Positions 2,964 through 59,718 of a stretch of 64,000 nt of DNA are shown piece after piece. Made by a program: the position numbers and the translations under genes. A model generated the notes under the pieces. The model searched no databases and was not told the origin of the DNA. It saw nothing but the letters and a program-made list of their open reading frames with translations. The stretch comes from a virus (lineage: Duplodnaviria > Heunggongvirae > Uroviricota > Caudoviricetes), in the IMG/VR virus record IMGVR_UViG_2585427757_000006, one strand, 5' to 3'. Position 1 is the first letter of the stretch; each line of letters opens with the position of its first letter.

Positions 2964-3362
2964 TCAGTTCTCGAAATGAATAGGGTCAACGTAATGCCGC
3001 TCACCGCTTTTACCATTACACAGCACTGTAACTTTCGCCTTTTCACTCCAGGCTGAGTATAGAAAGTTCCCATCAGGTTGAACATGGTAACGAGAGAAGT
3101 AAACATCGCCGACTGAGGCGTCGAACATGTTCCTATCTTTTTCACTTTGGGCAAGCGAGATGGATATCACCGAATTCCCATTTGGGGAAACGATTTTAAA
3201 TTTATTCCCTATATCCATAACAATATTGTAACCAGGTAATTGCTTGTGTGTTTCCGGATCTATTTTCATGCATCGTGGGTACACGATAGTGTTAGGCTCT
3301 TCAACTGGCGTGGCATTAGCAGAAAGCACAAAAAATATTAGTGCCAATGGTGCATATTTCAT
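2964..3362 (-). CDS. hypothetical secreted protein with N-terminal signal peptide
   Basis: 132-aa ORF, hydrophobic N-terminus MKYAPLALIFFVLSANA. Confidence 0.45.
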   Translation of the reverse strand: MKYAPLALIFFVLSANATPVEEPNTIVYPRCMKIDPETHKQLPGYNIVMDIGNKFKIVSPNGNSVISISLAQSEKDRNMFDASVGDVYFSRYHVQPDGNFLYSAWSEKAKVTVLCNGKSGERHYVDPIHFEN

Positions 3363-3656
3363 TTATCCCTCACAATTTCCAATTTTCCAGACCATCGTCT
3401 ATTTCAGCGTCAGGGTGGAATTGTACCGCATCAAATCCTACATCGAGCACCTTTCGAATGTTCTTGATGGTTTGCTATGTGACACCGTAATCACGCAGCT
3501 TTTCTTCCCTCCCCTGACTCCCCCATACTCCGTTTCTGTACCCAATTGAGTCCGAGATTGTATGGTGCTCGAAACAGATATTTGGTAGACACTCAGAGTC
3601 ATGCTGTGTAACGAGGGTAGGGCTACTAACTGTCGTCTTATACAATTTGGTGAGTT

Positions 3657-4058: not shown

Positions 4059-6092
4059 TTACTTAACCTGGTGGCCAGGTTTAGCACCAGCATCCGGGCT
4101 TAACAGGAAGATATCTTTCCCCCCGGGGCCAGCAGCCATTACCATGCCTTCGGAGATACCAAAGCGCATTTTACGCGGTGCCAGGTTGGCCACCATAATG
4201 GTGTGACGCCCGATCAGTGCCTGCGGATCTGGGTAGGCAGAACGAATACCGGAGAAGACATTGCGTTTTTCACCACCGAGATCCAGCGTCAGGCGAAGCA
4301 GTTTGTCAGAACCTTCTACAAACTCTGCGTTTTCAATCAGCGCCACGCGCAGGTCAACTTTGGCGAAGTCGTCAAAGGTGATAGTTTCCTGAATCGGGTC
4401 GTCAGCCAGTGGGCCAGTTACCGGTGCGGCTGTGGCTTTCACTTCTTCTTTGGATGCTTCCACCAGTGCTTCAACCTGCTTCATATCGATGCGGTTATAC
4501 AGTGCCTTGAACGGATTCACTTTATGGCCCAGCAGCGGTTGCTGGATACCATCCCAGGTCAGTTCTGTATTCAGGAATGCTTCTGCACGTTCAGTCAGTT
4601 TCGGCAGTACCGGTTTCAGGTACGTCATCAGCACGCGGAACAGGTTAATGCCCATAGAGCAAATCGCCTGCAGATCGGCATCGCGTCCTTCCTGCTTTGC
4701 CACCACCCACGGAGCCTGTTCATCAACATAGCGGTTAGCCAGGTCAGCCAGTGCCATGATTTCACGGATAGCTTTGCCAAATTCGCGGCTTTCCCATGCT
4801 TCGCCAATCACTTCAGCGGCATCAGTAAAGGTTTTGTACAGTTGCGGGTCAGCCAGTTCGCTTGCCAGCACGCCGTCAAAACGCTTGTTGATAAAGCCTG
4901 CATTACGGGAGGCCAGGTTAACCACTTTGTTAACGATATCGGCATTCACACGCTGAACGAAATCTTCCAGGTTGAGATCGATATCATCAATGCGCGAAGA
5001 GAGTTTCGCAGTGTAGTAGTAACGCAGGCTGTCGGCGTCAAAATGATTCAGCCAGGTGCTGGCTTTAATAAAGGTGCCGCGAGACTTGGACATCTTCGCG
5101 CCGTTCACCGTCACATAGCCGTGAACAAACAGGTTGGTCGGCTTGCGGAAGTTGCTGCCTTCCAGCATGGCAGGCCAGAACAGGCTGTGGAAGTAAACGA
5201 TATCTTTGCCGATGAAGTGGTACAGCTCGGCGGTGGAGTCTTTCTTCCAGTATTCGTCGAAGCTGGTAGTGTCGCCGCGTTTGTCGCACAGATTCTTGAA
5301 GGAACCCATGTAGCCAATCGGCGCGTCCAGCCAGACGTAGAAGTATTTGCCCGGTGCGTTCGGAATTTCAAAACCGAAGTAAGGTGCGTCACGGGAGATA
5401 TCCCACTGTTGCAGGCCAGATTCAAACCACTCCTGCATTTTGTTTGCCACCTGCTCCTGCAACGCACCGCTGCGGGTCCATGCCTGCAACATTTCGCTGA
5501 AAGAAGGCAGATCAAAGAAGAAGTGTTCGGAATCACGCATTACCGGTGTAGCGCCAGAAACCACTGATTTCGGCTCGATCAGTTCCGTCGGGCTGTATGT
5601 CGCGCCGCAGACTTCACAGTTATCGCCGTATTGATCCGGCGCTTTACATTTCGGGCATGTGCCTTTTACAAAACGGTCCGGCAGGAACATGCCTTTTTCC
5701 GGGTCGTACAGCTGAGAGATGGTGCGGTTTTTAATAAAACCGTTCTCTTTCAGGCGAGTATAGATAAGCTCGGACAACTGACGGTTCTCTTCGCTGTGCG
5801 TCGAGTGATAGTTGTCATAGCTGATGTTAAAGCCTGCGAAATCAGTCTGATGTTCCTGACTCATTTCGCCAATCATCTGTTCCGGTGTGATACCAAGCTG
5901 CTGTGCTTTCAGCATGATTGGCGTACCGTGGGCATCGTCGGCACAGATGAAATTAACCTCGTGGCCGCGCATTCGCTGGTAACGAACCCAGACATCAGCC
6001 TGGATGTGCTCCAGCATATGGCCGAGGTGGATTGAGCCGTTAGCGTACGGCAGCGCGCACGTCACCAGAATTTTCTTCGCGACTTGGGTCAT
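4059..6092 (-). CDS. metG: methionine--tRNA ligase
   Basis: 677-aa product from [40 protein letters not shown] motif, C-terminal tRNA-binding domain; start trimmed from track ORF to the conserved N-terminus. Confidence 0.95.
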
Positions 6093-6249
6093 AGTAGGCA
6101 TTACTTCTTTGTAGTGAAAAGGGGCTTGATAGTAACAAAATGGCCTTATGTCTGCCATGTGATAACAGCATTTCTCATAAATGATTAAATGTCGTAGCTG
6201 GAGTACACTACAAGGCGACAATTGCGCAAATTAAAATAAAGGAGACGGG

Positions 6250-7350
6250 ATGAGCGAGTCCAAATCGCCGGATGCCCTGAGAGCAATGGTAGCCGGTACG
6301 CTGGCTAATTTTCAGCACCCAACCCTGAAACACAACCTGACTACGCTTAAAGCGTTACACCATGTTGCGTTGATGGATGACACACTGCATGTCGAACTAA
6401 TCATGCCTTTCGTGTGGAATAAGCCTTTTGAAGACCTGAAAGAGCAATGTAGTGGTGATCTGCTCCGTATCACTGGCGCAAAGGCTATTGACTGGAAGCT
6501 GTCGTACAACATTGCCACGCTTAAGCGCGTCAAAAACCAACCAGGCATTAATGGCGTTAAGAACATTATCGCCGTCAGCTCAGGCAAGGGCGGCGTGGGT
6601 AAATCCTCCACGGCGGTAAACCTGGCACTGGCGTTGGCTGCTGAAGGTGCGAAAGTTGGTATTTTGGATGCCGATATCTATGGTCCATCAATTCCAACCA
6701 TGCTGGGCGCGGAAAACCAACGTCCAACCTCACCGGACGGTACTCACATGGCACCTATCATGTCTCATGGCCTGGCAACCAACTCTATTGGTTATCTGGT
6801 CACCGACGACAATGCAATGGTGTGGCGTGGACCGATGGCCAGCAAGGCGCTGATGCAGATGTTGCAGGAAACACTGTGGCCTGATCTGGACTATCTCGTT
6901 CTCGATATGCCACCGGGCACTGGTGATATTCAATTGACGCTGGCGCAGAACATTCCTGTAACTGGTGCGGTTGTGGTAACTACGCCGCAAGACATCGCGC
7001 TGATCGATGCGAAGAAAGGCATTGTGATGTTCGAAAAAGTCGAAGTGCCGGTACTGGGTATCGTTGAAAACATGAGTGTGCATATTTGCAGTAACTGCGG
7101 TCATCACGAGCCAATTTTTGGCACCGGTGGCGCACAGAAACTGGCCGAGAAATACAACACGCAGTTGTTAGGCCAAATGCCACTTCATATCTCTCTTCGT
7201 GAAGATCTGGATAACGGAACACCAACCGTTATTAGTCGTCCAGATAGTGAATTTACGGCTATTTATCGTGACCTCGCAGATCGCGTTGCTGCCCAAATGT
7301 ATTGGCAAGGTGAAGTAATACCTGGCGAAATCGCATTCCGCGCAGTGTGA
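6250..7350 (+). CDS. apbC: Fe-S cluster carrier ATPase ApbC/Mrp
   Basis: P-loop [16 protein letters not shown], CxxC motif CSNCGH, SD ggaga upstream; divergent from metG as in enterobacterial chromosomes. Confidence 0.93.
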
Positions 7351-14434: not shown

Positions 14435-15028
14435 CTAAGCAGCCTTCTTTGATGGTCTTTTTTTCCTGATCACATTCGCAGGATCATACCCTCCCAGACT
14501 TTTCATGACGTCCAAAGGGATCTTGCTTATAGAGTGCCCAGCGTCCTGACAGAATCCTCGAAAAACAACGAGCATACTGCCACCCGGGTTGATGTTTACT
14601 TCTACCTGACCCAGATTTACGTCAGGCTCGACAAACGCTACGCGGCCACCAGACAGAATAATCGTCTCATTCGCACACTCTGTTGCACGCTCATACCACT
14701 TTGTATCTAGGGATTGAGGAATTAGCATCACTGTTGTACCCCCGCGAGCCTGCTCACGTATAGCCGCATCAATCCAGGGGTAGATTTTGGAGTAGGGTGG
14801 ATTGAGGAAGGCAATTGTACCTGGCTGTCCCCATTCAGATTTCAAAGCATCACGCTCAACGCCTATGAAATTAGGCAGCTTTGCATTGTCCTTGTTGCAG
14901 GCAACGTCAACATCAAATGTCACTCCAAGATAACGTTGAATGGCAGAAAACAGCCAGTCAGGTGTTCTCCAGAGGTCACGAAGAGAGTTGTCACGCTTTC
15001 GCTGTTTGATTTTTTCGGCTGCAATCAT
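14435..15028 (-). CDS. phage-type N6-adenine DNA methyltransferase (Dam-like)
   Basis: WRTPDWLF and FLNPPYS motifs characteristic of the phage N6A methylase family. Confidence 0.75.
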   Translation of the reverse strand: MIAAEKIKQRKRDNSLRDLWRTPDWLFSAIQRYLGVTFDVDVACNKDNAKLPNFIGVERDALKSEWGQPGTIAFLNPPYSKIYPWIDAAIREQARGGTTVMLIPQSLDTKWYERATECANETIILSGGRVAFVEPDVNLGQVEVNINPGGSMLVVFRGFCQDAGHSISKIPLDVMKSLGGYDPANVIRKKRPSKKAA

Positions 15029-29417: not shown

Positions 29418-30062
29418 TTACAGCGCGTCAGTGGGCTTTTTACGCGCTGCGTTTATGCTTATGACGCCAGCTTTTGGACGTGGGTCAACAAGGTTAAGCT
29501 CTTCTTCGCTGTGGTATTCGAGGTCGAACTCACGTTTTACATGTCTGATGTAGATTGCGGTGAGCAGGCTATCTTTGGTCAGAAAGTGTCCGTAGGATTT
29601 GCGGATCACTTCTTCTACCTTCTCGATTTTCTCACCACCCATACAGAGATGATTAAACCGGCTGTGTTTCCGCAACATTTCGTCTACTGGGCCTGAGTAA
29701 ACCTTGTCTACTTTCCCAAAACGGATGATTTTCCCTGTGTCTGCGGATACGAGGCAAATCAGCTTGTCTGGTGATAAACGATCTCGCCACGTCACACCTG
29801 AACGGAGTGTGTTGAAGTAGGGAGCATCCAATCCGATGATCGGTTTACGAAATGCGAGTAATGGAACGTACCTGATGCAACTGTTTAAATGAAAATTCAC
29901 ACCAGCCTTATCAAGTTTAATTCTGGTTTCGTAGATCGGGCACTTCGCCGCTATACCGCAGATGTCACAAAGCAACTTCTGCTTATTCAGGTTGGAATTT
30001 GATTCGATAGTGTAGGAGCCGTCTTCAAGACGACGAACCCAGCGCGTGCGTTTTAGATCCAT
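29418..30062 (-). CDS. hypothetical protein
   Basis: 214-aa ORF. Confidence 0.4.
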   Translation of the reverse strand: MDLKRTRWVRRLEDGSYTIESNSNLNKQKLLCDICGIAAKCPIYETRIKLDKAGVNFHLNSCIRYVPLLAFRKPIIGLDAPYFNTLRSGVTWRDRLSPDKLICLVSADTGKIIRFGKVDKVYSGPVDEMLRKHSRFNHLCMGGEKIEKVEEVIRKSYGHFLTKDSLLTAIYIRHVKREFDLEYHSEEELNLVDPRPKAGVISINAARKKPTDAL

Positions 30063-30140
30063 ATGTCATTTTTCTGTGATTGTTAGCCGAGGCAACGATA
30101 ACCCACCAGGTGCGCCGAAGGTAGTAAATGCCTGTTTTAA

Positions 30141-30365
30141 TTATTCACATATCCACAGGATAGATCCTAATAAAGAGATCCATAGATAGATCCTTATATA
30201 GATCAAATAAGATCCCCGATCGCTGTAAGCCGCGCCACGACTGGTCTGAAGTCATGTTCATGTATGCTGTCAGCGGTAATTGATAGTCTGTCAGCGGTTC
30301 ACCGTATGCTGCCAACTGTTTTTGGTATTCTGTCAGCGGCAAATCAAGTATGCTGTCAGCGGTTG
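30141..30365 (+). promoter_or_regulatory. plasmid replication origin (oriR-like): DnaA-box-like 9-mers, GATC cluster, five iterons
   Basis: ttattcaca and atatccaca 9-mers; six GATC within 30160-30222 in agatcc heptamers; five copies of atgctgtcagcggt-like iteron up to the repA SD. Confidence 0.75.
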
Positions 30366-30383
30366 AATGACAAAGGTGTCCAC

Positions 30384-31478
30384 ATGTCCACAAAAAATAA
30401 AAAAGGTAAAAATAACAAAGAAGTAGAAGATAACATCGACAACTTTGAAGAAGGTTCCCTTGAATTGTACACAGGGGAACTTGTCCCTAATAGCAACAAT
30501 ACAGTCCAACCAATTGCGTTGATGCGACTGGGGTTGTTCGTCCCCACGCTTAAGGGAACAAAATACAGTAAACGTAACAAGCCAAATGAGATCGATGCTT
30601 CAAAGGAGCTTGTCCAGCTCGAAGTAGCCCGTTCTGAAGGCTATTCCGATATCAAGATAACCGGTCCTCGTCTCGACATGGATCATGATTTCAAAACGTG
30701 GGTGGGCGTTGTGCGTTCGCTGGCAGAATACGGCGAACCTAACGGTCGTGTCGAGTTAAGCATCACGAAATTTGCGAAGTTTTGTGGCTATCCATCGTCA
30801 CAGATCCGCAAAACACTCCGCGACCGGCTTACAAACAGTCTTTTGAAGATCATGCGTACAACTCTGTCTTTCCAGAGAACGTATGAAGAAAAGAACGTCG
30901 ACGGCTCTAACAAGATCTCGCTTCTGATGGTGCACCTCATCAATAGCGTGGACTACAACGAGCAGAAAGATACGGTGGTGTTCTATGCAGAACCGAAGCT
31001 GGCCGAACTATATCGCTTTGACCATAAGGTTCTTTTGCAGTTAAAGGTTATCAATAAGCTACCACGCAAAGAAACAGCACAGGCTCTGTACACCTTCATC
31101 GAAAGTCTTCCAACCAAGCCTGCGCCGGTATCGCTTGCTCGATTGCGTGCGCGACTCAATTTGAGTAGCAGGAATGTCAGCTCGCAGAATCAGACTATAC
31201 GTAACGGCTTAAAAGCTCTCCAAGATTTGGGCTATCTCGAATACAGCGAGATTAAGCGTGGGCGGTCGATCTATATCCAGATTCACAGCCGCAATCCAAA
31301 ACTCAAAGTCGCACCGCCAAAACCTGAAGACATCGAACCCAAAAAACCAGATGAGAAAGCCGGGGAAATTGATGCCAAACAGAACATTATCAATAAGATA
31401 ACCGAACTTTCGCAGAATTTGACGCCTGAAAATATCAAGATGATTGAGATCCTTTCCAATAGTCTCAAACTGCTTTGA
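30384..31478 (+). CDS. repA: iteron-binding replication initiator RepA (P1/RepFIB-like)
   Basis: NSNNTVQPIALMRLGLFVP, GYSDIKITGPRLDMDHDFKTW, YTFIESLP, HSRNPKLK resemble P1-type RepA; start set at MSTKN with SD aggtg; track ORF 5-prime part is read-through of iterons. Confidence 0.85.
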   Translation: MSTKNKKGKNNKEVEDNIDNFEEGSLELYTGELVPNSNNTVQPIALMRLGLFVPTLKGTKYSKRNKPNEIDASKELVQLEVARSEGYSDIKITGPRLDMDHDFKTWVGVVRSLAEYGEPNGRVELSITKFAKFCGYPSSQIRKTLRDRLTNSLLKIMRTTLSFQRTYEEKNVDGSNKISLLMVHLINSVDYNEQKDTVVFYAEPKLAELYRFDHKVLLQLKVINKLPRKETAQALYTFIESLPTKPAPVSLARLRARLNLSSRNVSSQNQTIRNGLKALQDLGYLEYSEIKRGRSIYIQIHSRNPKLKVAPPKPEDIEPKKPDEKAGEIDAKQNIINKITELSQNLTPENIKMIEILSNSLKLL

Positions 31479-32010
31479 TATGCTGTCAGCGGTGAAATGT
31501 ATGCTATCAGCGGCTATTTTTCTGAAAAGTATGCTGTGAACGGTTAAAGATATGCTACCAGCGGTATAGTGAGATGAACGTATGCTGTGAGCGGTAAATC
31601 ATCTATCACCACTCAATGCTCTGCCATACCTCCCCAGTGGTTACTAACCTCGAAGAGTGCATTCCATATAGGTTTGCGCTCACTAACATTCTATTGCTAT
31701 TGCGCTGATTGCTTGTAGTGAAAGGCATTTATTGCCTGCTACTCCCTGATAGAATGTATGCTGTCAGCGGTGTTTTATTGAGGAATTTTTGTTTGGATAT
31801 GCTATCAGCGGTAATTAATGGTATATGTCAGACCTTCGTATGCTGCCAGCGGTAATTTTGTTCTGGTTATACCCATACCGGGACACATTATTCATGCAAT
31901 GTCTTAAGTATGCTGTCAGCGGTAAAAAATCGAGTAAAGTATGCTGTGAGCGGTGAGATAGACTCTCGATATGCTATCAGCGGTAGTTGATTGTGTATGC
32001 TGTCAGCGGT
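31478..32010 (+). repeat. incA-like iteron array downstream of repA, about 12 copies in two clusters
   Basis: Repeated tatgctgtcagcggt and variants (gctatcagcgg, gctgtgagcgg, gctgccagcgg) with a 150-bp spacer. Confidence 0.85.
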
Positions 32011-32057
32011 GACGACTATGAAATATGACTGCGGAACGTGCCGCAGTCAGTTTGCAT

Positions 32058-32270
32058 TTAGTGTATTTTCTTTAACAGACCCCAAAGTGTTCCGGCTTTT
32101 GTAGTCAGTTTTCCTGTTTCTGGATCGTACATACGCCATTCACGCCGCTGGTGGACGATATACCCATCTTCACGTTCCAGACGCTCAAGAATGCCAGGCT
32201 GCTTGAAACCCTTAGCACGCCAGTAGCCGCTTGTTTTCTCGATTTCCAGACCTGCCAGTGTTAATGCCAT
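32058..32270 (-). CDS. hypothetical protein
   Basis: 70-aa ORF; start overlaps upstream stop. Confidence 0.35.
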   Translation of the reverse strand: MALTLAGLEIEKTSGYWRAKGFKQPGILERLEREDGYIVHQRREWRMYDPETGKLTTKAGTLWGLLKKIH

Positions 32271-32605
32271 TACCCAACCTCCTTGCAGTCATCGAAAAGG
32301 TAGCTGTCGTTCTTCGCGTGAACGCCGTATACATCACCCGATTTGTTGTAAACGAACCTATCTTTACCTACGCCAGATAGTTCGCCGTTACGTTTAGTGA
32401 GAAACGGGGAAGACAGGACGCGATCATCGCGTACCACATAAAACTGTTCGCCACGGTCCACAACCATCGCGCCGTAATTAGCTTTAACGGCGTTGCGGAT
32501 CAGGCCGTTTTTCGCTTCGACCACAAACATTTCGCACTCATAGACATGTGTGTCCGCAAAGACGGGGAGAGTGAGCAGCGCCAGTACCAGGGCTGTTTTC
32601 TTCAT
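32270..32605 (-). CDS. hypothetical secreted protein
   Basis: Signal peptide MKKTALVLALLTLPVFA; 111 aa. Confidence 0.45.
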   Translation of the reverse strand: MKKTALVLALLTLPVFADTHVYECEMFVVEAKNGLIRNAVKANYGAMVVDRGEQFYVVRDDRVLSSPFLTKRNGELSGVGKDRFVYNKSGDVYGVHAKNDSYLFDDCKEVG

Positions 32606-33159: not shown

Positions 33160-36994
<3,835 letters not shown>

Positions 36995-37008
36995 AATTGT
37001 AAATTCCC

Positions 37009-38172
37009 TTAATCAAAATTCTTCTGTTTCATTGCCTCAGCCGCTTTTTGCAGCGGTCCTTTCAAGGCTTTTTCTAACTTTGTCATCTGCTCTAAGTGCC
37101 ACGCAACCGCTTGGGGCCACGTCTCTTTATTAAACCCATCAGCTTTGGTCGAAAACTGAATACGGCAAGATTTCTTCTCATCCAGCCTCATCCACTCAAG
37201 TTCTGCACCAAAAGCATGTTCAATGTCCTGTTTGGACTGACTCAACAAGTCAAAAAGGTATTTATTCTCTTCGGTAACCCCACGGCTGATCCAAAGCTCT
37301 ACTCGAAGCTCTTTTTGCAGAAATATCAGGTTATACGGACACCCACTTAACCCTGAGCCTGCTGATAACCAGTGATCTTTGCTTGGGCTAATGTTGTTAT
37401 AGAGTTGGCAAACGCTTTTCTGAAACGCCTCTAAGGCACGCTCCCAGTACTCGCGACGCACCGTATGGCGGTTTTTAAGGACCACTTCGGTGGTTTTTTC
37501 TTCCGCTTCCTTGGCATTAATGCCGATCATCAACTCTTTCGCTTCTGGCGTTGGAATGATCTGGTCAATATTAATCAGTAGCTGTTCACCCAGTGAATAA
37601 GGCGTGATTTTGAAGCAGGCAATGCTAATGCCTTGACCCAATAACCACAGCGCGGTGCTGGTCACTTCTTTGCGAAAGTTTGCCGCAACTAGCATAATAC
37701 GCTGGCTGTTACCCAGGTTGAGCTTTAACTCATCCAGATCGGGCGCATCCAAAAATTCACATATTCTCGCCGAAGCACTTGCAGGGGCATTTAACAGGTC
37801 AACCTCTGCTGTTACAGGCTCATAGCGATCTAAGTACTGCTGGTAAATGTCAACTATTTGTGCTTTGGTTAAACTGGCACAGTAAGAGGCATATTTAAGG
37901 GCCTGCCACACCACATCTCGGCCACTGTCGTCCAGCTTATTTTCAATAATGACCAAGTTGCCATCTTTATCCAGTGCCAGTAAATCTAATCGTTCACGGG
38001 TGTCATCAAAGCCATCGAACTCTTTTTGAATAATCAACAACTCTTCACCCAATGCGGAAGGTTCGTGTGCCAACCACTCCTGAAGATGCTTGCGCTCAGT
38101 AAAGCCCAACTCACTGAACTTCTTTGTCCTAACAGGACTAATCCTGTTAGTTTGATGATTTACCGTGAACAT
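37009..38172 (-). CDS. PD-(D/E)xK nuclease-fold protein of unknown function embedded in type I R-M operon
   Basis: N-terminal D-x(n)-E-x-K pattern LDLLALDKDGNLVIIENKLD; 387 aa; tightly packed between hsdS and hsdR. Confidence 0.45.
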   Translation of the reverse strand: MFTVNHQTNRISPVRTKKFSELGFTERKHLQEWLAHEPSALGEELLIIQKEFDGFDDTRERLDLLALDKDGNLVIIENKLDDSGRDVVWQALKYASYCASLTKAQIVDIYQQYLDRYEPVTAEVDLLNAPASASARICEFLDAPDLDELKLNLGNSQRIMLVAANFRKEVTSTALWLLGQGISIACFKITPYSLGEQLLINIDQIIPTPEAKELMIGINAKEAEEKTTEVVLKNRHTVRREYWERALEAFQKSVCQLYNNISPSKDHWLSAGSGLSGCPYNLIFLQKELRVELWISRGVTEENKYLFDLLSQSKQDIEHAFGAELEWMRLDEKKSCRIQFSTKADGFNKETWPQAVAWHLEQMTKLEKALKGPLQKAAEAMKQKNFD

Positions 38173-38181
38173 ATTCGCGTC

Positions 38182-39462
38182 CTATTGCTCAACCATTTCT
38201 GGGGTGATTTTTATTTTTCCTGTCACGGCGCTGTTGATCAGGGTGGTTTTGTATTCTTTAAGCTTTTCAATCTGCGACTTTTGGATATCAATCGTGCGAT
38301 TCAGATCTGGCTCAATTCCTTCAATGAACGAAATTATTTCTTGAATTTCATCTTTTGGTGGCACTGGAACCAATACACTTGCAAGACGATCCCTTGTTAA
38401 TTTTGGCTGTGCCGCACCAGAAATATATACCGTATAGTCCAATCCGCTTAATAATTCGGCCCAGTATTTAAAACCATGAAATTTTGGCTTAATAATATGT
38501 GCATGGTTATTCACCCAATACTTTCCAGTTGCAACAAAAGCCAATGGTGTTGACTTGCTTAGCAAATTCGCGCCATCTTCAGCGATCAAGATTAAATCTT
38601 CATCAAAGATGTAGTCATCAACATAATCGATAACACCACTTGCTCCGTAATACGGATATACGCCCTGTCTCGACTCTCTCTCAACTGCGCTTATTGGAAC
38701 TCTTCTACTGTTAAGAAACTCAAACGCATATCTCAATGACATTAAGTTCCAATGCGCTGGAATCTTACCAATCCAATCCACACCGGAGTCTTTCATTGGC
38801 ACATTGGGATCAAGCCCTTGGGTCACCGCCTGTTGGATGATGATCTGCTTACGCTCTTTCAGCAGGCTAATTTGCTGCTCTTTGATCGAAATCGCTTCGT
38901 CGATTAGAGCGGTTTTCTTGTCGAGAAAATTTGCAATTAGGGACTGCTCTTCTTCTGAAGGCAGAACAAAAGGAATCACCTTCATCCGTGCTTTTGAAAG
39001 GTCCCACTGACCAATCCTTACACCATCTGATGCACTACCAAAAAACGATACATATAACTTACTGCGTATCGCCCAATTGAAAAACTCAGGATTTATTGCC
39101 TTTGTAAAATCAAAAATAAAATACGCAGGACTTACAATTCCAGTGAACTTTGATACACCGTAAGAACCCTGCCACGCTTTCATTTTATTCATTCCAAATT
39201 GACCTTTCTCAAGCTTTTTATAGCCGCTAAGATCATCTGGTATAAAATTGTGATTTGACTCTTGATTATCCACGTCTCTCTCGATAACACCTTGTTCGCG
39301 TGTTATCGAAAGTAGTGGCAATTCAGGGCAGTTTTTGACCGACACCGGAGATAGGCACGAGCCTAACTTAACCAAGTCCCAATGCTCTGGAATCTCGCCA
39401 ATCCACTCATAACCAGAGTCACTATATTGATCATACTTTAGCGTTGAGGTAATGCTTTCCAT
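38182..39462 (-). CDS. hsdS: type I restriction-modification specificity subunit
   Basis: 426 aa, two-repeat architecture with conserved central and C-terminal helical spacers; 1-nt overlap with hsdM stop. Confidence 0.8.
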   Translation of the reverse strand: MESITSTLKYDQYSDSGYEWIGEIPEHWDLVKLGSCLSPVSVKNCPELPLLSITREQGVIERDVDNQESNHNFIPDDLSGYKKLEKGQFGMNKMKAWQGSYGVSKFTGIVSPAYFIFDFTKAINPEFFNWAIRSKLYVSFFGSASDGVRIGQWDLSKARMKVIPFVLPSEEEQSLIANFLDKKTALIDEAISIKEQQISLLKERKQIIIQQAVTQGLDPNVPMKDSGVDWIGKIPAHWNLMSLRYAFEFLNSRRVPISAVERESRQGVYPYYGASGVIDYVDDYIFDEDLILIAEDGANLLSKSTPLAFVATGKYWVNNHAHIIKPKFHGFKYWAELLSGLDYTVYISGAAQPKLTRDRLASVLVPVPPKDEIQEIISFIEGIEPDLNRTIDIQKSQIEKLKEYKTTLINSAVTGKIKITPEMVEQ

Positions 39463-41891
39463 TAGGCTTCTCCCTGAACTTCCGCCACTTTCACGCCTAA
39501 TATTTGTGCAATCAAACCATCAGCCTTCTGCTCTAGATTGATAATGTCAGTTGCTACTTCTTCAAGACTACGTAATGGCTTATGCAGATAGAAATACTTA
39601 TTGAAGCTGATTTCATAGCCAATTTTTACCGTATCTAGGTTTATCCATGCTTCATCGACATGAGGCTTCACTTCATCTAGGAAGTACTGGTAAATGCTTT
39701 GCTTTAATGGAACAGATTCTGTATCTCGCAGGTCTGAATTGGTCTCGTAAGTGATATACTCGCCTTTTTTACCGCCTTCTGCTGAAGGAACGGGGTAATA
39801 ACCAAAATCTGGCAAGTCAGCGACTTCACACTCATAGCGCTCCAGCAGGTCGTTTAATTTATCACCCGTTAATTTAACTACCTTTTTAACCACTTTCTTG
39901 GCGGTTTCGTCATACCAGCTCACCGCGTGAAGAATGGCATTTTTCTCAGGTGCTGAAAGCTTAATAGCATGGGCTTTTAGCGATTTATCAACTTGGGTTT
40001 TAAAGCTATTGAAGTCATCAAATTCAATGCTACCGATGTCAGCCATCAGCGTTTGTGCAGTTTCAAGCAATGCTTTTAGCGCCAGCCAGTGTTTCACATC
40101 AAGCAGTTTGGCCTTAGCCTTAGCATTGAGACTGATGTCGTTATCTTCACACCAAGAAAGAATGTCTTTCTCGATGGATTTTAAGAAGCTCTTTTTCTGA
40201 TCTGACCCGTAGCCAGTTTTTTCGTAAACACGTTCGCCGTGCTCTGCGTACACGTACTCCATCACTTCACTAAGTTGCTTATCAAAACGCAGTGGGGCTA
40301 TGGCATCTTGAGTAAACTTGGCTTTGCGGCGATCTGGGCGCTCGATAGTGACTTTGTAGTAGCCAAAATCGTCATTGCTGAATACCTTACTGGCGATGCC
40401 AACAGGATCATTGTTTGCATCCAGTGCTCTTTCAACATCCTTACACGCGAGGTAAGTATCGGTAATTTCCGTGATGTGCTCAGGCGCAAATTCGCAGTTT
40501 TTGTTACCTAAGTTCTTGCGCAACTTACGGTAGAGCAAGCTGGCATCAATTAATTGCACCTTACCTTTACGCGCCTCAGGTTTATTGTTGCTCAACACCC
40601 AAATGTAAGTGGTAATGCCAGTGTTATAGAACAGGTTATTAGGTAACTGAACGATGGCATCTAGCATGTCGTTTTCAATGATGAAGCGACGAATATTACT
40701 TTCACCACCGCCCGCATCTCCGGTAAAGAGCGATGAGCCGTTATGAACAGAGGCAATCCGGCTGCCTAATGGACTTACGCTCGGATCTTTCATCTTGTTG
40801 ACCATCTCCATTAAGAAAAGCAGCTGGCCATCACTCGAACGTGGCGTGGCATCCACCACTTCGAGATTTCCCCAATAGTCTTTCAGGCTAACCTTAAAAC
40901 GCGGGTCAATCACATCACTGCCGTCTTTAATGTACTTCTGTTCAGACGCCCAACTCTTACCGTATGGCGGGGTAGACAACATAAAGTCAAAGCGTGAAGC
41001 CGCAAACTCGTCGGTAGACAAGGTTGAGCCTACCTTGATGTTCTCAGGGTTGTTACCTTTGATCATCATGTCCGATTTACAAATCGCGTAGGTCTCGTCA
41101 TTGATCTCTTTGCCGTAAAGGTAAATATCTCGGCTGTCGTTCGGGTATTTCTCTTCAATGAAGTTTTGAGATTCAGTGAGCATACCACCGCTACCACACG
41201 CAGGGTCGTAAACGGTCATGGTCAATGGTAGCTGCTCTTTCACTGGGTCAAAAACCAAGTGTGTCATCAGCTCAATCACTTCCCTAGGTGTAAAGTGCTC
41301 ACCGGCTTCTTCGTTATTCTCCTCGTTGAACTTACGGATCAACTCTTCGAACACGTACCCCATACCCAGGTTAGTAAGGGCTGGCATCTTGTTGCCATCT
41401 GGGTCTTCGATCGTTTCATGAGTTAAGTTGATGTAAGGGGAAACAAACTTTTCGACGACATCAAGAAGGACTTGCTTTGAGGCCATGTGACGAATTTGCG
41501 ACTTGAGGTTAAAGCATTCAATGATTTCTTTAACATTATCGCTAAAGCTAAGCAGGTACTCTTCAAAGTTGGCGAGTAATATCTGTTGGTTATTCGTTGC
41601 GGTGTTGAACAGGGATTTCAGGGTCCATTTAGATGTATTGTAAAAAACATAACCACTAGCCGCCTTCAATGGTTCATCATCAAGCTCCGTGGCTTGCATC
41701 TCTTCTTTTTGGAACTTGACCTCTTCAAGCACGGCTTCTTTGGTGGGTTCAAGTAACGTATCTAAACGTCGTAATACCACCATAGGTAAAATCACATCGC
41801 GGTACTTACCGCGAACGTACACATCACGTAAACAGTCGTCGGCAATGTTCCATATAAATGAGATGAGCTTGTTATGTACACTATGATCCAT
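39462..41891 (-). CDS. hsdM: type I restriction-modification N6-adenine DNA methyltransferase
   Basis: N-terminal FIWNIADD, motif I PACGSGGML, motif IV LSTPPYG; start set at MDHSVHN. Confidence 0.85.
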   Translation of the reverse strand: MDHSVHNKLISFIWNIADDCLRDVYVRGKYRDVILPMVVLRRLDTLLEPTKEAVLEEVKFQKEEMQATELDDEPLKAASGYVFYNTSKWTLKSLFNTATNNQQILLANFEEYLLSFSDNVKEIIECFNLKSQIRHMASKQVLLDVVEKFVSPYINLTHETIEDPDGNKMPALTNLGMGYVFEELIRKFNEENNEEAGEHFTPREVIELMTHLVFDPVKEQLPLTMTVYDPACGSGGMLTESQNFIEEKYPNDSRDIYLYGKEINDETYAICKSDMMIKGNNPENIKVGSTLSTDEFAASRFDFMLSTPPYGKSWASEQKYIKDGSDVIDPRFKVSLKDYWGNLEVVDATPRSSDGQLLFLMEMVNKMKDPSVSPLGSRIASVHNGSSLFTGDAGGGESNIRRFIIENDMLDAIVQLPNNLFYNTGITTYIWVLSNNKPEARKGKVQLIDASLLYRKLRKNLGNKNCEFAPEHITEITDTYLACKDVERALDANNDPVGIASKVFSNDDFGYYKVTIERPDRRKAKFTQDAIAPLRFDKQLSEVMEYVYAEHGERVYEKTGYGSDQKKSFLKSIEKDILSWCEDNDISLNAKAKAKLLDVKHWLALKALLETAQTLMADIGSIEFDDFNSFKTQVDKSLKAHAIKLSAPEKNAILHAVSWYDETAKKVVKKVVKLTGDKLNDLLERYECEVADLPDFGYYPVPSAEGGKKGEYITYETNSDLRDTESVPLKQSIYQYFLDEVKPHVDEAWINLDTVKIGYEISFNKYFYLHKPLRSLEEVATDIINLEQKADGLIAQILGVKVAEVQGEA

Positions 41892-42123
41892 TTTCTTTTC
41901 CTGTTCAGTGTTGGTTGCACCCCACAAAGTTGCTGCAACGGCTTCACTATAAATTTAAAATTCTGTTCTTTCTGTAACGCCTAAATGGCCTCTACATCGT
42001 TCGATTAACTTGTTCTACCCGGCGCTAGATTTAAGTTTATGACACCATAAAGTGAATCGCCACAGGTTTAATAGACTGAATCGCCACAGGTTTAACAGAC
42101 ACCTCAGAGTCATTTAAGATGAC

Positions 42124-42609: not shown

Positions 42610-43683
42610 TTAATCTTCTAATTCATCTGTCGGTGATGTCTTCTCGCGCCTGTCATCTATTGCCTGTAACGCAGCAATGATTTCAGCTAATGGCTTCTCC
42701 CGGTACATCTCGACGATCTGTGATTTGGTGTATTTCTTCTCGCCAATTTCCACACGCCCGCTGGCGCTCTTGGGCAGGTATCCTTCCTCCAGCATGTATT
42801 CAACCAGAGACTCGACGACGTCCAGCCCGCGAGTCGGGTCGAAGTAGAATTTCCATGAGCATTTGCCAAACGGAGGCGCGACTTTGTTTTTAATGCACTC
42901 GGCGCCAACGTCCTGTCCGATCTTCTCTTTGCCATCCTTCATGACGGATGCACCCAGACGGATGCGCACCGACGCGTAGAACTTCGGAGAGTCGCCACCC
43001 GGAGACGTAGTCGGATCGCCAAACATCACACCAATTTTGGTACGCACCTGGTTCAAGAAGATGATGCACGCGTTGTACTTACGCGCCCAAAGCGCCAGAG
43101 TAGGGAAGTTCGCACTTGTCGCGCGCGCCAGCGCCGTGTTGTCGTTCATGTTCAGCTGATCTTTGTCTTTCGCAGTGCCTTCTGCCATCTTGTCGAACTT
43201 CTCAGCCTTCGAGTTCGGAACCATCGACGCCAGAGAGTCGGCTACGATGCAGATAGGGGCTGTTTCCGGAATAAGCTCTTCGTCGCGCACCAGCTTGAGG
43301 ATTGTGCCGATCAGCTCTACGGAGTCTTCGAAGGTATCCGGCTGTTTGTAGACCCACTGACCGTCATCCTCATCTGCGTTCAGGCCATTGGCTACAGCCA
43401 GGCCAACGTCAAAACTGTTTTCATGATCGAGGAATACCGCCAGACCATCTTGTTTTTGAGCGGAGATCATCGCTGCTGTTGCAAGGAACGTTTTCCCTGC
43501 ACTTGGAGGACCGAATACTTCGACGATACGACCACATGGGAAGCCGCCATCGTAACGACCAGAAATAGCTTTGTTTAACGGTGGAAAGCCTGTATCAATC
43601 CAATGAGTTACTTTCTGAATTTCGTCGTTGCTACCGATTTTCTTTTTCAGAGCAAGTGCCAGTGCGGATTTTCCTTTTGCCAT
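42610..43683 (-). CDS. RecA/UvsX-like recombinase
   Basis: Walker A GPPSAGKT, RecA-like core, acidic C-terminal tail. Confidence 0.7.
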   Translation of the reverse strand: MAKGKSALALALKKKIGSNDEIQKVTHWIDTGFPPLNKAISGRYDGGFPCGRIVEVFGPPSAGKTFLATAAMISAQKQDGLAVFLDHENSFDVGLAVANGLNADEDDGQWVYKQPDTFEDSVELIGTILKLVRDEELIPETAPICIVADSLASMVPNSKAEKFDKMAEGTAKDKDQLNMNDNTALARATSANFPTLALWARKYNACIIFLNQVRTKIGVMFGDPTTSPGGDSPKFYASVRIRLGASVMKDGKEKIGQDVGAECIKNKVAPPFGKCSWKFYFDPTRGLDVVESLVEYMLEEGYLPKSASGRVEIGEKKYTKSQIVEMYREKPLAEIIAALQAIDDRREKTSPTDELED

Positions 43684-43685
43684 GA

Positions 43686-43958
43686 TCAGGCTCCTTTTGT
43701 TTCGTTGATTCGTTTTAAAGCGGCGGATTCGTCGAATACAATCGCATCGTGGTTAAGGAGTCTGGATACACGAGCGAGGATTTTTACGACCTGCTCGCTG
43801 ACTAATCCAAACTCGCGATCTGTCGCTTTCATTCCGGCAGCGCCTAGAATTGACGGCAGTGCGATGACAGCGTACTCACCGTGATAAAAGACAATCTCTT
43901 TTGCCAGTTGGGCAGGGGTGGTTGTAGCGCCATTGATAATCGATTTAAGCATTAGCAA
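43686..43958 (-). CDS. hypothetical protein
   Basis: 90-aa ORF in operon. Confidence 0.35.
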   Translation of the reverse strand: MLMLKSIINGATTTPAQLAKEIVFYHGEYAVIALPSILGAAGMKATDREFGLVSEQVVKILARVSRLLNHDAIVFDESAALKRINETKGA

Positions 43959-44947
43959 TACCTTTCGAATGGAAGAACAAACACTTCAAGGTCTTCAAGG
44001 AACGAACGGAAATTCAGCTCGTAGCACAGTTGCTCGAATGCTTTCACGTCACGATTGCCTTTGATTGTTTCGATTTCGGTAGGCGGAAACTTCGTCTCAA
44101 TCAGGTTCATTAGCGTGATGTTTCTCTTGAACGCTTCGAGCATTCGACAGCCTGTTTTCTCGTTGAAGGCATTCTTCGCTAGTTTGTTGAAGGCGGTCTT
44201 ATGGCGTCCTTTGTCAACCACGATTGAGCCGTCGTTGATGCCGCGTACCATCGTTGCGACACTTCCCCATTCATGCAGCAGCTCTTTCGCACCGCCAGCA
44301 CCAATGCCACCAACACCGCTAATGTTGTCCGATTTATCGCCTTGTAATGCTTTTGCTTCCAAAAATGCGCGAGGAGTAGCGAATCCTGTCAGCTCCGCAA
44401 ATTGCTCAAAATTAACCTGCTTGTTTTTGGCGTCTTCGCGCAGGCTTACCCAGCTTACGTTTTCGCGAACTAACTGAAGCCAGTCGCTATCGCCTGTTAA
44501 CAGATAGATGTGTTCAACGATTGGCTGCGGTGCAATGCTGGCTACCAGCAGCCCGGCCAGATCATCCGCTTCTGCATCTTTTGCAATGAGTTGGGTAACT
44601 CCAAGCGCGGTCATCATTTTGAGGATGTATGGCTTCTGGATAGCAAAGCCTTCCTTCATCTTTTTCATATCAGGATCGTCGTCGCGATTTGCTTTGTAGT
44701 CCGGGTAAAAGTCGCGACGCTTGTCACTAAATCCATCCCAAAGAATCATAGGTCGGGCATGGAGGATGGAGGCATAACGACGGACGTTCTTAACAAAGCC
44801 GAAAGCAGCCTGTACTTCCATTTCGCCGTTGTGCAATTTGTCAGATTGTTGGTGGTAATAACCCAGGCTATTGCCATCTACGAAGAGATAATTCACCGGT
44901 ACATTCCTTCCAAAAAGTAAGGCGTCCGTAGACGCCTTACTGGTCAC
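43952..44947 (-). CDS. 5-prime to 3-prime exonuclease / flap endonuclease
   Basis: Acidic clusters VDGNSLGY, AEADDL, LTGDSDW and helix-hairpin-helix LQGDKSDNISGVGGIG. Confidence 0.8.
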   Translation of the reverse strand: MTSKASTDALLFGRNVPVNYLFVDGNSLGYYHQQSDKLHNGEMEVQAAFGFVKNVRRYASILHARPMILWDGFSDKRRDFYPDYKANRDDDPDMKKMKEGFAIQKPYILKMMTALGVTQLIAKDAEADDLAGLLVASIAPQPIVEHIYLLTGDSDWLQLVRENVSWVSLREDAKNKQVNFEQFAELTGFATPRAFLEAKALQGDKSDNISGVGGIGAGGAKELLHEWGSVATMVRGINDGSIVVDKGRHKTAFNKLAKNAFNEKTGCRMLEAFKRNITLMNLIETKFPPTEIETIKGNRDVKAFEQLCYELNFRSFLEDLEVFVLPFERYC

Positions 44948-44956
44948 GTAATGGGA

Positions 44957-45985
44957 TTACAGAGAGTCCAGCTCTCTCAGTAGGTCATCCAGACCTTCAT
45001 CTTCCGTCGCAGATGCGGCTGCTACAGATGTCGCTGCGACTGCTTCAGACTCTTTGACTGATACTGCAACGGCAGCGGGACTTGCTTCTGGTTTAAATTC
45101 AGTTTCAACGGCACGGAGGATTTCTTCATCAACCAGACTGGTTGGTTCAGAAGCTGGGGTATGAGCGGTAGCTACAGCAGTCGCACCCTCCGTATGACCA
45201 GTGACAGAGCCAAATCCAGGTAGTGCCGCAGCCGATGTTTTCGCGGTTGAGGAAATTGCTGGTGCAGATGCTGCGGCAGTTGGTGCAGCGATGCCAATCA
45301 GACGACCCATAGTGCGAACTGTCGACAGAAGACGAGTTTCATCAGCCTGATTTGCGTATGCGATCAGATCATGCTGGGTGTTCCAGAATTTATCTTCGAT
45401 ATCGCCTTTGTAGACTTTACGCTTAGGCGAGACGTCATATTTGGTATCGCGACCAGAGCCAGTACGTTTAATCAGGAATGCGTAGCCTTCCTCTTTGCTC
45501 AGTGGATTGCCGATATCATCAGCGATGTCTTCGGTGATTGCTTTGCAGATATCATCGAATACAGTAGACGGCAGCTCGATTAACTGGCATTTCTCAGCAT
45601 CTGCGAAATCCTCACGAGCAGAAAGAATGCCGTTGACCAGGTAGCGAGGAGTGGCACGCATTTGACCGATGCGTTCTTCCATTGCTTTGTTACCCTTGTG
45701 ACGAGCGCGACCTTCCATCACCATTTCGCATAGCTGACAAGCGCGACCGTGAGTATGTTGCTCACAAATATAAGCGTTGGTTGCTTCTTTACCTTCCTCG
45801 TTCTGATACTTAACGTAGTGCATACCGAAAGTCTGGAAGAACTTACCGTTTGGGTCGTCTTTATTCGGGAAGATGCGGATATAGTTGACGCCGTCTTTTA
45901 AGCGAGTCAGATCAACGTTGTTACCACGTTTGGCGGCAATGTCTTCACGAGTTTTGTTAAGCAAATCAAGTAATGTCTTAGACAT
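44957..45985 (-). CDS. putative single-stranded DNA-binding protein with zinc motif and acidic tail
   Basis: CEQHTHGRACQLC zinc-like motif, A/S/T-rich linker, acidic C-terminus EDEGLDDLLRELDSL. Confidence 0.5.
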   Translation of the reverse strand: MSKTLLDLLNKTREDIAAKRGNNVDLTRLKDGVNYIRIFPNKDDPNGKFFQTFGMHYVKYQNEEGKEATNAYICEQHTHGRACQLCEMVMEGRARHKGNKAMEERIGQMRATPRYLVNGILSAREDFADAEKCQLIELPSTVFDDICKAITEDIADDIGNPLSKEEGYAFLIKRTGSGRDTKYDVSPKRKVYKGDIEDKFWNTQHDLIAYANQADETRLLSTVRTMGRLIGIAAPTAAASAPAISSTAKTSAAALPGFGSVTGHTEGATAVATAHTPASEPTSLVDEEILRAVETEFKPEASPAAVAVSVKESEAVAATSVAAASATEDEGLDDLLRELDSL

Positions 45986-59160: not shown

Positions 59161-59247
59161 TGGCGGAGAGTAATGGAATCGAACCATCATCGCTTGCGCA
59201 ATGGGACGGTTTTCAAGACCGCTTGAGCACCATGCTCCCTACTCTCC
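59161..59247 (-). tRNA. tRNA-Ser(UGA), type II with long variable arm, CCA encoded
   Basis: Acceptor ggagagt/actctcc, anticodon loop cttgaaa, T-loop ttcgatt; D-loop unusually short. Confidence 0.6.
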
Positions 59248-59471
59248 GGCCGTTGTGGTGGCCGGTACTGAATCTCCGGCATACGGTGCAGCCAATTAGG
59301 ACTACGGACGATCACCGCTCGCGAAAGGGAAGATTTGCGGCCGCATTTCCCTAACATCCAAGAAAGCTATCGCATCAGTCTGCGAATCCACCACAACGGT
59401 AAGATCACTACCTTTCGACCAGTCATTGTGCACATGAACGACGATTAACCGTAATGATCTTATCGTTGTAT

Positions 59472-59547
59472 TGGTGCCGGTTAGCGGACTCGAACCGCTG
59501 ACATCCTGCTTACAAGGCAGGCGCTCTACCAACTGAGCTAAACCGGC
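59472..59547 (-). tRNA. tRNA-Thr(UGU), CCA encoded
   Basis: gccggtttagctcagttggtagagc D-arm, anticodon loop cttgtaa, T-loop ttcgagt. Confidence 0.75.
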
Positions 59548-59551
59548 AATT

Positions 59552-59638
59552 TGGTGGGGAGTGATGGAGTCGAACCACCCGAGTCGCAATGACAGTAGAT
59601 TTACAGTCTACCCCGCTGCCCCTACGGACTAACTCCCC
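59552..59638 (-). tRNA. tRNA-Tyr(GUA), long variable arm, CCA encoded
   Basis: Acceptor ggggagt/actcccc, anticodon stem gtaga/tctac with loop ctgtaaa, T-loop ttcgact. Confidence 0.65.
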
Positions 59639-59643
59639 TAAAT

Positions 59644-59718
59644 TGGCGATGGTGGGTGGATTCGAACCACCGACCAGTTGGTTAACAGCCAACTGCTCTA
59701 CCGCTGAGCTACACCATC
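59644..59718 (-). tRNA. tRNA-Asn(GUU), CCA encoded
   Basis: Acceptor gatggtg/caccatc, D-arm gctcagcggtagagc, anticodon loop ctgttaa, T-loop ttcgaat. Confidence 0.75.

Follow-up and report, generated by a model that had tools for sequence, protein, structure and literature searches.

The closest well described relative of the locus studied here is the oriR-repA-incA plasmid replicon of phage P1, in which tandem DnaA boxes, Dam sites and five direct iterons about 21 bp apart precede repA, and an array of control iterons begins at the repA stop codon. P1 is kept at about one to two copies per cell, and its repA promoter, PrepA, is a weak one. Related replicons, known as IncFIB or RepFIB, are found on conjugative F-type plasmids such as pCS0010A and pSLT, and on the phage-plasmids of the SSU5 supercommunity, which are likewise typed IncFIB (PMC7969092). 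Among the latter, pECOH89 and p09EL50 have identical RepA proteins, and the pECOH89 protein shows 48% similarity to RepA of pLF82 (PMC3999498). That this replicon family exists, that SSU5-like elements carry it and that it serves as a target for IncFIB typing is already established.

We have analyzed a 64,000-nucleotide stretch of viral DNA (the window), in which positions 30141-32049 almost certainly constitute the plasmid-maintenance replicon of an E. coli phage-plasmid of the SSU5/pHCM2 family (pECOH89/p09EL50/pSLy3 type); the replicon would be of the theta type, iteron-controlled, and homologous to both P1 oriR-repA-incA and IncFIB (RepFIB). The order of its parts over 30141-32010 is two DnaA-box-like 9-mers, six GATC sites, a GC-rich spacer, five iterons, repA and twelve more iterons. 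A previous reading made from the sequence alone had proposed a P1-family layout for this region: all the elements that it listed were found at their coordinates, and their order matches the curated annotation of P1 element by element. The replicon as such is of an ordinary, previously catalogued kind.

The predicted replication origin

At the left end of the origin two DnaA-box-like 9-mers, TTATTCACA (30141-30149) and ATATCCACA (30149-30157), lie in tandem on the plus strand with a one-base overlap; as the sequence-only reading had noticed, both are present, and each has one mismatch to TTATCCACA. They form the sole tandem pair of such 9-mers in the 64-kb window, at a position that aligns with the annotated tandem DnaA site of P1, while the Klebsiella relative has TTATCCACTTATCCACT in their place. 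Since the entire window has 17 DnaA-box-like 9-mers versus 15.1 expected, and hence no enrichment, the evidence for 30141-30157 as the predicted DnaA boxes of a P1 oriR-type origin comes from their occurrence in tandem and at the position homologous to that of the P1 site.

The boxes are followed by an AT-rich region of GATC repeats (30159-30221; 71% A+T over 30159-30214) with five heptamer-type sites of the form AGATC(C/A) and one CGATCG. Its six GATC sites, at 30163, 30177, 30189, 30201, 30211 and 30218, make up the densest such cluster of the window (six within 59 bp, where the background is 4.3 per kb), and compare with the five Dam sites that are annotated in P1 oriR where the two sequences align. 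The earlier count of six was right, but not the assignment of all of them to agatcc heptamers, as there are four AGATCC, one AGATCA and one CGATCG. This is presumably the Dam-methylated opening region that is sequestered by SeqA. The element also carries, as had been pointed out, a gene for a Dam-family methylase on the minus strand at 14435-15028 (PF05869, E = 2.8e-38); that this enzyme controls the origin is no more than plausible, and in a dam+ host it would be dispensable for that purpose.

The GC-rich spacer on the right of the GATC sites (30215-30258, 41% A+T) contains GCCGCGCCACG and is conserved in both P1 and the Klebsiella relative. Altogether, the 118 bp of this left half of the origin are 75-76% identical to P1 and to pPMK1-B; the alignment with P1 oriR reaches 75% nucleotide identity, whereas shuffled controls average 47% and never exceed 53%, and this half of the layout lends weight to the P1-type assignment.

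Motif matching then identifies, on the plus strand at 30263-30364, the five direct, incC-like origin iterons that had been described upstream of repA. Their core is TATGCTGTCAGCGGT, as compared with GATGTGTGCTGGAGGGAAA in P1, and they start at 30264, 30285, 30306, 30327 and 30350, with start-to-start spacings of 21, 21, 21 and 23 bp (21, 21, 21 and 22 bp in P1). For the iteron core RTATGCTGTCAGCGGT, a search with the 14-mer ATGCTGTCAGCGGT that allowed at most 3 mismatches gives 22 matches in the window versus 4.9 ± 2.2 expected, a number attained in none of 100 shuffles, and 17 of the 22 matches, all on the plus strand, fall within 30264-32010.

By analogy with P1, the repA promoter is probably embedded in these iterons, with TTGGTA at 30322-30327 followed by AAGTAT near 30346-30351; this placement is one of position only, because PrepA of P1 is annotated between iterons 3-4 and 4-5, and a simple consensus scan for sigma-70 promoters over 30000-32150 returned none on the plus strand. 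Two further motifs with a weak resemblance to DnaA boxes, GTGTCCACA and ATGTCCACA, can be read on the plus strand at 30374-30392; they lie where the origin ends on the right and overlap the repA start codon. They are candidate right-end DnaA boxes: at this place GTATCCACA and ATGTCCACA are found in the Klebsiella relative, and P1 has a DnaA-like box, CTATCCACA, between the last iteron and repA.

RepA and its relatives

The repA gene (30384-31478, plus strand, ATG at 30384) encodes a predicted iteron-binding initiator of 364 amino acids. Its homologous core extends over residues ~30-310, and the last ~55 residues form a tail rich in proline and charged residues; this tail and a longer N-terminus distinguish it from P1 RepA, which has 286 amino acids. 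RefSeq places the start of RepA at 30264, 40 codons upstream of this ATG, an assignment that appears to be too early.

The comparison of RepA with P1, P7 and SSU5 that the sequence-only reading had recommended gave 46% identity to P1 RepA (BLASTP, P1 residues 20-284 of 286, E = 3e-86), 44% to P7 RepA (tblastn) and 48% to SSU5/pLF82 RepA. Identity is ~50% to the RepA of IncFIB-typed F-type plasmids (tblastn; over the core, with a C-terminal tail similar in character) and 85% to that of the Klebsiella pKPHS1-type phage-plasmid. Thus RepA clusters with the P1/P7, IncFIB and SSU5 proteins, and not with chromosomal or unrelated initiators. The Rep3_N (WH1) family of Pfam recognizes it with 37.5 bits (cut-off 22.4), and PHROG 775 with E = 5e-133. 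No match to Rep3_C (WH2) was reported, a domain for which P1 RepA itself is sub-threshold (20.5 versus 21.1), and the NCBIfam scan yielded no family at E ≤ 0.01. As a sequence search of the PDB returned nothing at E ≤ 1, membership at the level of the fold is based on the WH1 match and on the homology to P1 RepA. Near full-length similarity places the protein among the predicted Rep_3 initiators, in the P1 RepA/IncFIB subfamily.

The F-type RepFIB replicons share with the window the upstream GATC repeats and the presence of iterons on both sides of repA, but differ in the iteron sequence and in their downstream repeats, which in the example examined are mostly inverted with respect to the upstream ones; their host element is a conjugative plasmid, while that of the window is a phage-plasmid. 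The phage backbone of the window, that of an SSU5-like siphovirus, is unrelated to the P1-like myovirus. In the SSU5-supercommunity phage-plasmids (Klebsiella pKPHS1/pPMK1-B; SSU5/pLF82 (Cyrano)/pHCM2) the replicon occupies the same slot, between a 214-aa PHROG 2105 gene and a 70-aa PHROG 804 gene. The Klebsiella type, of which MOB-suite assigns pPMK1-B to IncFIB, has the iteron sequence and the origin layout of the window; SSU5, the member of the other type that was examined, differs in its iterons (of the CCACTGTAGAGAG type) and has its origin module in two tandem copies.

The downstream iteron array

Downstream of repA, where about twelve further iterons had been anticipated, there are exactly twelve (31479-32010), which with the five upstream completes the iteron count and alignment. 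All are direct and have the same core as the origin iterons. They are arranged in a block of five that begins one base after the repA stop codon (31479-31595, plus strand) and a block of seven (31757-32010, plus strand; spacings of 41, 41, 70, 31, 30 and 26 bp), separated by a 162-bp gap (31596-31756) in which motif searches found no iteron with up to 3 mismatches. A search on either strand of 31401-32100 for decayed or inverted iterons with 4-5 mismatches was also negative. With Rfam, the only matches in the entire window are tRNAs, none of them in the replicon or in the iteron-free spacer. The replicon ends on the right with a GC-rich hairpin that is terminator-like on both strands (32026-32049; 9-bp stem with 6 GC pairs, −19.3 kcal/mol, z-score −3.9) and faces a convergent gene on the minus strand (32058-32270).

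By the identity of its iterons and by its position, the segment 31479-32010 would be a copy-control locus of the incA type, a class of loci that restrain copy number and cause incompatibility when provided in trans. It differs from that of P1, whose nine control iterons are contiguous, 3 direct and 6 inverted, and from the 9 control iterons (4 + 5) of the Klebsiella type. Since the downstream iterons are mixed or inverted in P1, SSU5 and F-type RepFIB, and all twelve are direct here, the geometry of handcuffing may also be different. For the related phage-plasmid Cyrano 5.5 copies per cell have been measured (PMC9928086), and copy control may therefore be looser than that of P1. The array is also polymorphic among close relatives: block 2 has four iterons in PhiR41_1 and eight in p4_0.2, for natural totals of 9 and 13 downstream iterons, respectively, against 12 here.

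Distribution and proposed mode of maintenance and copy control

The 1.96-kb replicon occurs at 95-100% identity on ~120 circular E. coli plasmids of ~105-120 kb (pSLy3, p09EL50/pECOH89 type). Among 5,426 complete E. coli genomes it was found in 120, at 185 places that are all on plasmid records, with no chromosomal copy. Because it matches p09EL50 at 99.6% and the RepA of p09EL50 is identical to that of pECOH89 (PMC3999498), it probably corresponds to the H89-named replicon of PlasmidFinder, IncFIB(H89-PhagePlasmid). A complete set of siphovirus structural genes is present on the matching plasmids. For example, pSJC33-2, which apart from three short breaks is collinear with positions 1888-64000 of the window at 97-99.9% identity, is a 113-kb circular plasmid with terminase, portal, capsid, tape-measure and tail-fibre genes, and near-identical records (PhiR41_1, CMS-2020a) have been deposited as phages. 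MOB-suite classifies as non-mobilizable both of the matching E. coli records checked (2/2). The presence of capsid, portal, terminase and tail genes on the records that bear the replicon, together with its 185 of 185 placements on plasmid records, supports the suggestion that the element is a phage-plasmid rather than an integrated prophage.

We have considered whether the downstream array might serve in partition, as a centromere, or as a second origin, rather than as an incA-like copy-control locus, and so make good the missing adjacent parAB. P1 has a par operon next to its replicon, while here no parAB-parS directly follows; in its length, its division into two blocks and its uniformly direct repeats the array resembles certain arrays of centromeric repeats, and SSU5 itself has two tandem origin-like modules. 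The array repeats, however, share the sequence of the origin iterons, and should therefore bind RepA and not ParB; there are neither DnaA boxes nor a GATC cluster beside them, and they sit, from the repA stop codon onward, exactly where P1 has incA. Nor is the element devoid of partition genes: the window contains no ParAB genes, as had been stated, but ParA-like and ParB_N genes lie outside it on the same element, ~40-70 kb from the replicon. We consider such a role for the array very improbable.

It could also be argued that the whole replicon is an inactive relic, and that the element is kept or replicated through an unrecognised origin or through the phage-type genes for its DnaB-like helicase and primase, as it does encode a large phage-type module for replication and nucleotide metabolism. 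Against this stand an intact repA reading frame, origin elements that are all 95-100% identical across ~120 independent plasmids, and a full architecture that is kept in Klebsiella at 85% RepA identity. In pSLy3 the replicon is still 100% identical despite an IS91-family insertion 102 bp to the left of the DnaA boxes. Moreover, MOB-suite reports no replicon type other than the cluster rep_cluster_488 on the three matching E. coli plasmid records for which we read the typing. We give this explanation hardly any credence, and retain that of a plasmid-maintenance replicon of the P1/RepFIB kind.

Autonomous replication, binding of RepA to the iterons, dependence on Dam and DnaA, and copy control by the downstream array would then follow the precedent of P1 and RepFIB. 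By homology to P1, RepA monomers would bind the five origin iterons and host DnaA the flanking boxes, and the two proteins together would open the adjacent AT-rich GATC region, for which Dam methylation would be required and which SeqA would sequester while hemimethylated; after opening, host DnaB and Pol III would be loaded. Like other origins of the P1 oriR type, this one would be expected to depend on Dam methylation, on DnaA and on the chaperones DnaK, DnaJ and GrpE. RepA would also repress its own promoter embedded in the iterons, and the twelve downstream iterons would titrate RepA and handcuff the origin iterons, keeping the copy number low. For lytic growth the element would use its distinct set of phage-type replication genes, among them those for a DnaB-like helicase, a primase, a ligase and NrdAB.

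The replicon in itself raises no new biological question. Its value is one of annotation: the window can be recognized as part of an extrachromosomal phage-plasmid of the SSU5/pHCM2 type, a family that sometimes carries blaCTX-M-15, and the origin, iterons and control array, for which public records have no annotation, now have base-level coordinates. A more speculative idea, to which we attach a rather low likelihood, is that the all-direct, expanded and length-polymorphic array acts in this SSU5-type branch as a recombination-prone copy-number dial, with deletions and duplications from iteron to iteron resetting the copy number reversibly. A 2026 preprint is said to link heteroresistance to a phage-plasmid, repA and copy number. 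If the array were such a dial, the gain or loss of a unit would reset the dosage of cargo genes, for example that of blaCTX-M-15 on pECOH89-like elements.

Fine structure of the replicon

All of the features described in the sequence-only reading are seen in 29800-32500, and its coordinates for the replicon, 30141-32010, are exact. The left end of the origin is formed by two DnaA-box-like 9-mers, TTATTCACA (30141-30149) and ATATCCACA (30149-30157), read from the sequence as a head-to-tail tandem, each with one mismatch to TTATCCACA. Such 9-mers occur in the window at chance frequency (17 versus 15.1 expected), so the case for DnaA boxes comes from the tandem layout and the location of this pair rather than from abundance. 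They are directly followed by six GATC sites (30163, 30177, 30189, 30201, 30211, 30218), the densest cluster of the window (6 in 59 bp versus 4.3 per kb window-wide), in a stretch that is 71% A+T; the next 44 bp are GC-rich (41% A+T). All six sites had been placed in agatcc heptamers: the number stands, but only four are AGATCC, the others being AGATCA and CGATCG. This left half, 118 bp from the DnaA boxes to the spacer, is 75% identical between the window and P1 oriR, and 76% between the window and Klebsiella pPMK1-B; alignments with shuffled P1 sequence averaged 47% and never exceeded 53%.

A naturally occurring insertion offers a left boundary for the origin. In the E. coli plasmid pSLy3, an IS91-family element (4253-5935 of its locus, L001) sits at the equivalent of 30035-30039, which is 102 bp to the left of the first DnaA box and within the 5' end of a 214-aa PHROG 2105 gene; the replicon is otherwise 100% identical. 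This replicon is the sole one typed in pSLy3; provided that the plasmid depends on it, the sequence that the origin needs does not reach as far left as 30039, and the insertion lends some indirect support to function.

Matches to the 14-mer ATGCTGTCAGCGGT with at most 3 mismatches number 22 in the window versus 4.9 ± 2.2 expected (22 or more in 0 of 100 shuffles); 17 of these lie within 30264-32010, on the + strand throughout, and their information profile defines a 16-bp iteron core, RTATGCTGTCAGCGGT. As had been claimed, five iterons precede repA; their start-to-start distances are 21, 21, 21 and 23 bp. The "about twelve" noted downstream are exactly twelve: a block of five (31480-31595) and a block of seven (31758-32010), separated by an iteron-free gap of 162 bp in which an Rfam scan and a search for decayed or inverted iterons found no recognisable feature. 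The right boundary of the module is a stable hairpin (32026-32049) facing a convergent gene.

RepA and its start codon

The initiator encoded at 30384-31478 (364 aa) matches Pfam Rep3_N (WH1) above threshold and PHROG 775 with E 5e-133. It is 46% identical to P1 RepA (residues 20-284 of 286, E 3e-86), about 50% to the RepA of conjugative plasmids typed IncFIB (for example pCS0010A and pSLT), 47.9% to that of Cyrano/pLF82 and SSU5, and 85-88% to that of Klebsiella phage-plasmids, of which pPMK1-B is typed IncFIB by MOB-suite. The C-terminal tail of about 55 residues is not peculiar to this element, because in a multiple alignment SSU5 and F-type RepFIB RepA have a tail of the same kind; P1 RepA is the short exception that lacks it. 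In PHROG 775 and several RefSeq phage records, including that of P1 (NC_005856), P1-type RepA is labelled a replication helicase; we reject this label, as the protein belongs to the iteron-binding Rep_3 initiators and is not a helicase.

RefSeq gives RepA as 404 aa, starting at an ATG within iteron 1 (30264), so that its extra 40 codons (30264-30383) are the iterons themselves, read as in-frame 21-bp units with an ATG in each. We take ATG 30384 as the probable start, because homology begins only at about residue 30 of the 364-aa form, Klebsiella RepA aligns from residue 1 of that form (MSTKNKK), and many depositors place coordinate 1 there; the position of the P1 promoter likewise favours it.

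Comparison with P1 and variation of the control array

In P1 oriR an 18-bp tandem DnaA site, five Dam sites, a spacer and five incC iterons (spacing 21, 21, 21, 22 bp) are followed by repA and by incA, which starts at the repA stop codon. Against this curated annotation the window has identical parts in the same order and nearly identical spacing, as the oriR-repA-incA assignment had proposed. The P1 iteron, GATGTGTGCTGGAGGGAAA, differs from that of the window, as separate incompatibility specificity would be expected to predict. Two weak DnaA-like motifs, GTGTCCACA and ATGTCCACA, lie right of the origin iterons (30374-30392) and overlap the repA start codon; the matching interval contains GTATCCACA and ATGTCCACA in a Klebsiella relative, and CTATCCACA in P1. 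P1 PrepA is embedded between iterons 3-4 and 4-5, and at its position the window has TTGGTA, an 18-nt spacer and AAGTAT. Because this promoter match is weak and was not called in a consensus promoter scan, it is from position alone that repA autoregulation may be suggested.

The control array is longer than that of P1, and is split by the 162-bp spacer. Its twelve iterons are direct throughout; in P1, 3 are direct against 6 inverted, and in SSU5 and F-type RepFIB the orientation is mixed or mostly inverted. Beyond the array P1 has par genes, while no parAB follows here. Judging from unchanged match length, nearly all listed E. coli records have 12 control iterons. Phage PhiR41_1, recorded with MG1655 as its host, has 9, three units being lost by an 87-bp iteron-to-iteron deletion; plasmid p4_0.2 (NZ_CP023851) has 13, with one 26-bp unit gained; and pPMK1-B has 9 (4 + 5). 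The length differences among the near-identical relatives map to 31909-32010 of the window, and to 4061-4075 of locus L002 and 2197-2237 of locus L011. The differences from relatives are variations within a known kind, although an array of this sort, direct and variable in length, might influence copy number in nature. In SSU5 (JQ965645), two tandem origin-like modules lie upstream of repA (about 2760-2995 and 3140-3400), each with a DnaA-like box, GATC repeats, a spacer and five iterons; in the module nearer repA the GATC heptamers have decayed (GAACC, GACCC).

The element and the proposed working of its origin

The segment 30100-32060 (1,961 bp) is present with 100% identity in pSLy3, pSJC33-2 and NZ_CP041426, all E. 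coli plasmids, and with 99.6% in p09EL50 (O104:H4 strain 2009EL-2050). At least 80% of this query is covered in 121 plasmid records, nearly all non-mobilizable; matches of at least 99% are also seen in three phage records, namely PhiR41_1 and two CMS-2020a records. Positions 1888-64000 are collinear with pSJC33-2 (97-99.9% identity, three short breaks), a circular plasmid of 113 kb that encodes terminase, portal, major capsid, tape-measure and tail-fibre proteins as well as a DnaB-like helicase, primase and ligase. Among 5,426 RefSeq complete E. coli genomes the replicon is present in 120, at 185 places, all in plasmid records and none chromosomal. Together with the structural genes of pSJC33-2, this supports the interpretation as a phage-plasmid rather than an integrated prophage. 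The observation that ParAB is missing from the window is also borne out, the ParA-like ATPase and two ParB_N proteins of pSJC33-2 being encoded outside it. The replicon is the one whose PlasmidFinder entry we take to be IncFIB(H89-PhagePlasmid), a name routinely used in the literature. The family of pECOH89, p09EL50, pLF82, pHCM2 and SSU5 has been described as phage-like plasmids or phage-plasmids (PMC3999498; PMC4270462; PMC7969092); according to PMC3999498, pECOH89 and p09EL50 share an identical RepA, which has 48% similarity to the pLF82 protein, in agreement with our 47.9%.

Several other genes of the element were noted. At about 4060-7350, the pSJC33-2 equivalent is annotated with full-length metG (methionine-tRNA ligase) and apbC/mrp, housekeeping genes usually found on the chromosome. 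A type I restriction-modification system (about 33276-42000; hsdR at 33977-36994, a DUF4268 gene, hsdS, hsdM) adjoins an IS3-family transposase fragment (33276-33962); this island is missing from most relatives, which cover 64% of 20000-44999, and in pSLy3 it has an additional group II intron. For a 2.3-kb gene at about 42660-45000 (-), the pSJC33-2 annotation is LAGLIDADG homing endonuclease and that of PhiR41_1 "RecA-like protein", which suggests a RecA-family gene that contains an intein or homing endonuclease. Four tRNA genes (Ser-TGA, Thr-TGT, Tyr-GTA, Asn-GTT; three above the Rfam threshold) lie at 59161-59718 (-); two, Thr and Asn, were reported for pECOH89 (PMC3999498).

By analogy with how P1 and RepFIB replicons are known to behave (iteron control, SeqA, handcuffing), RepA monomers bound at the five iterons of the origin and DnaA on the flanking boxes would open the methylated AT-rich GATC region; after firing, the hemimethylated origin would be sequestered by SeqA. 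RepA on the origin iterons would repress its own promoter, and the downstream iterons would titrate RepA and handcuff the origin, keeping copy number low. The Dam-like methylase proposed at 14435-15028 (-) is indeed a Dam-family enzyme (PF05869, E 2.8e-38; PHROG 111), in a minus-strand block with dihydrofolate reductase, thymidylate synthase and nrdAB. Dam is already supplied by E. coli, so the origin needs no element-encoded enzyme; action of the element's Dam there is no more than a possibility.

Public databases and the literature already contain the sequence, the element and the replicon family, and we regard the detailed map and the proposed correction of the start codon as useful annotation rather than discovery.
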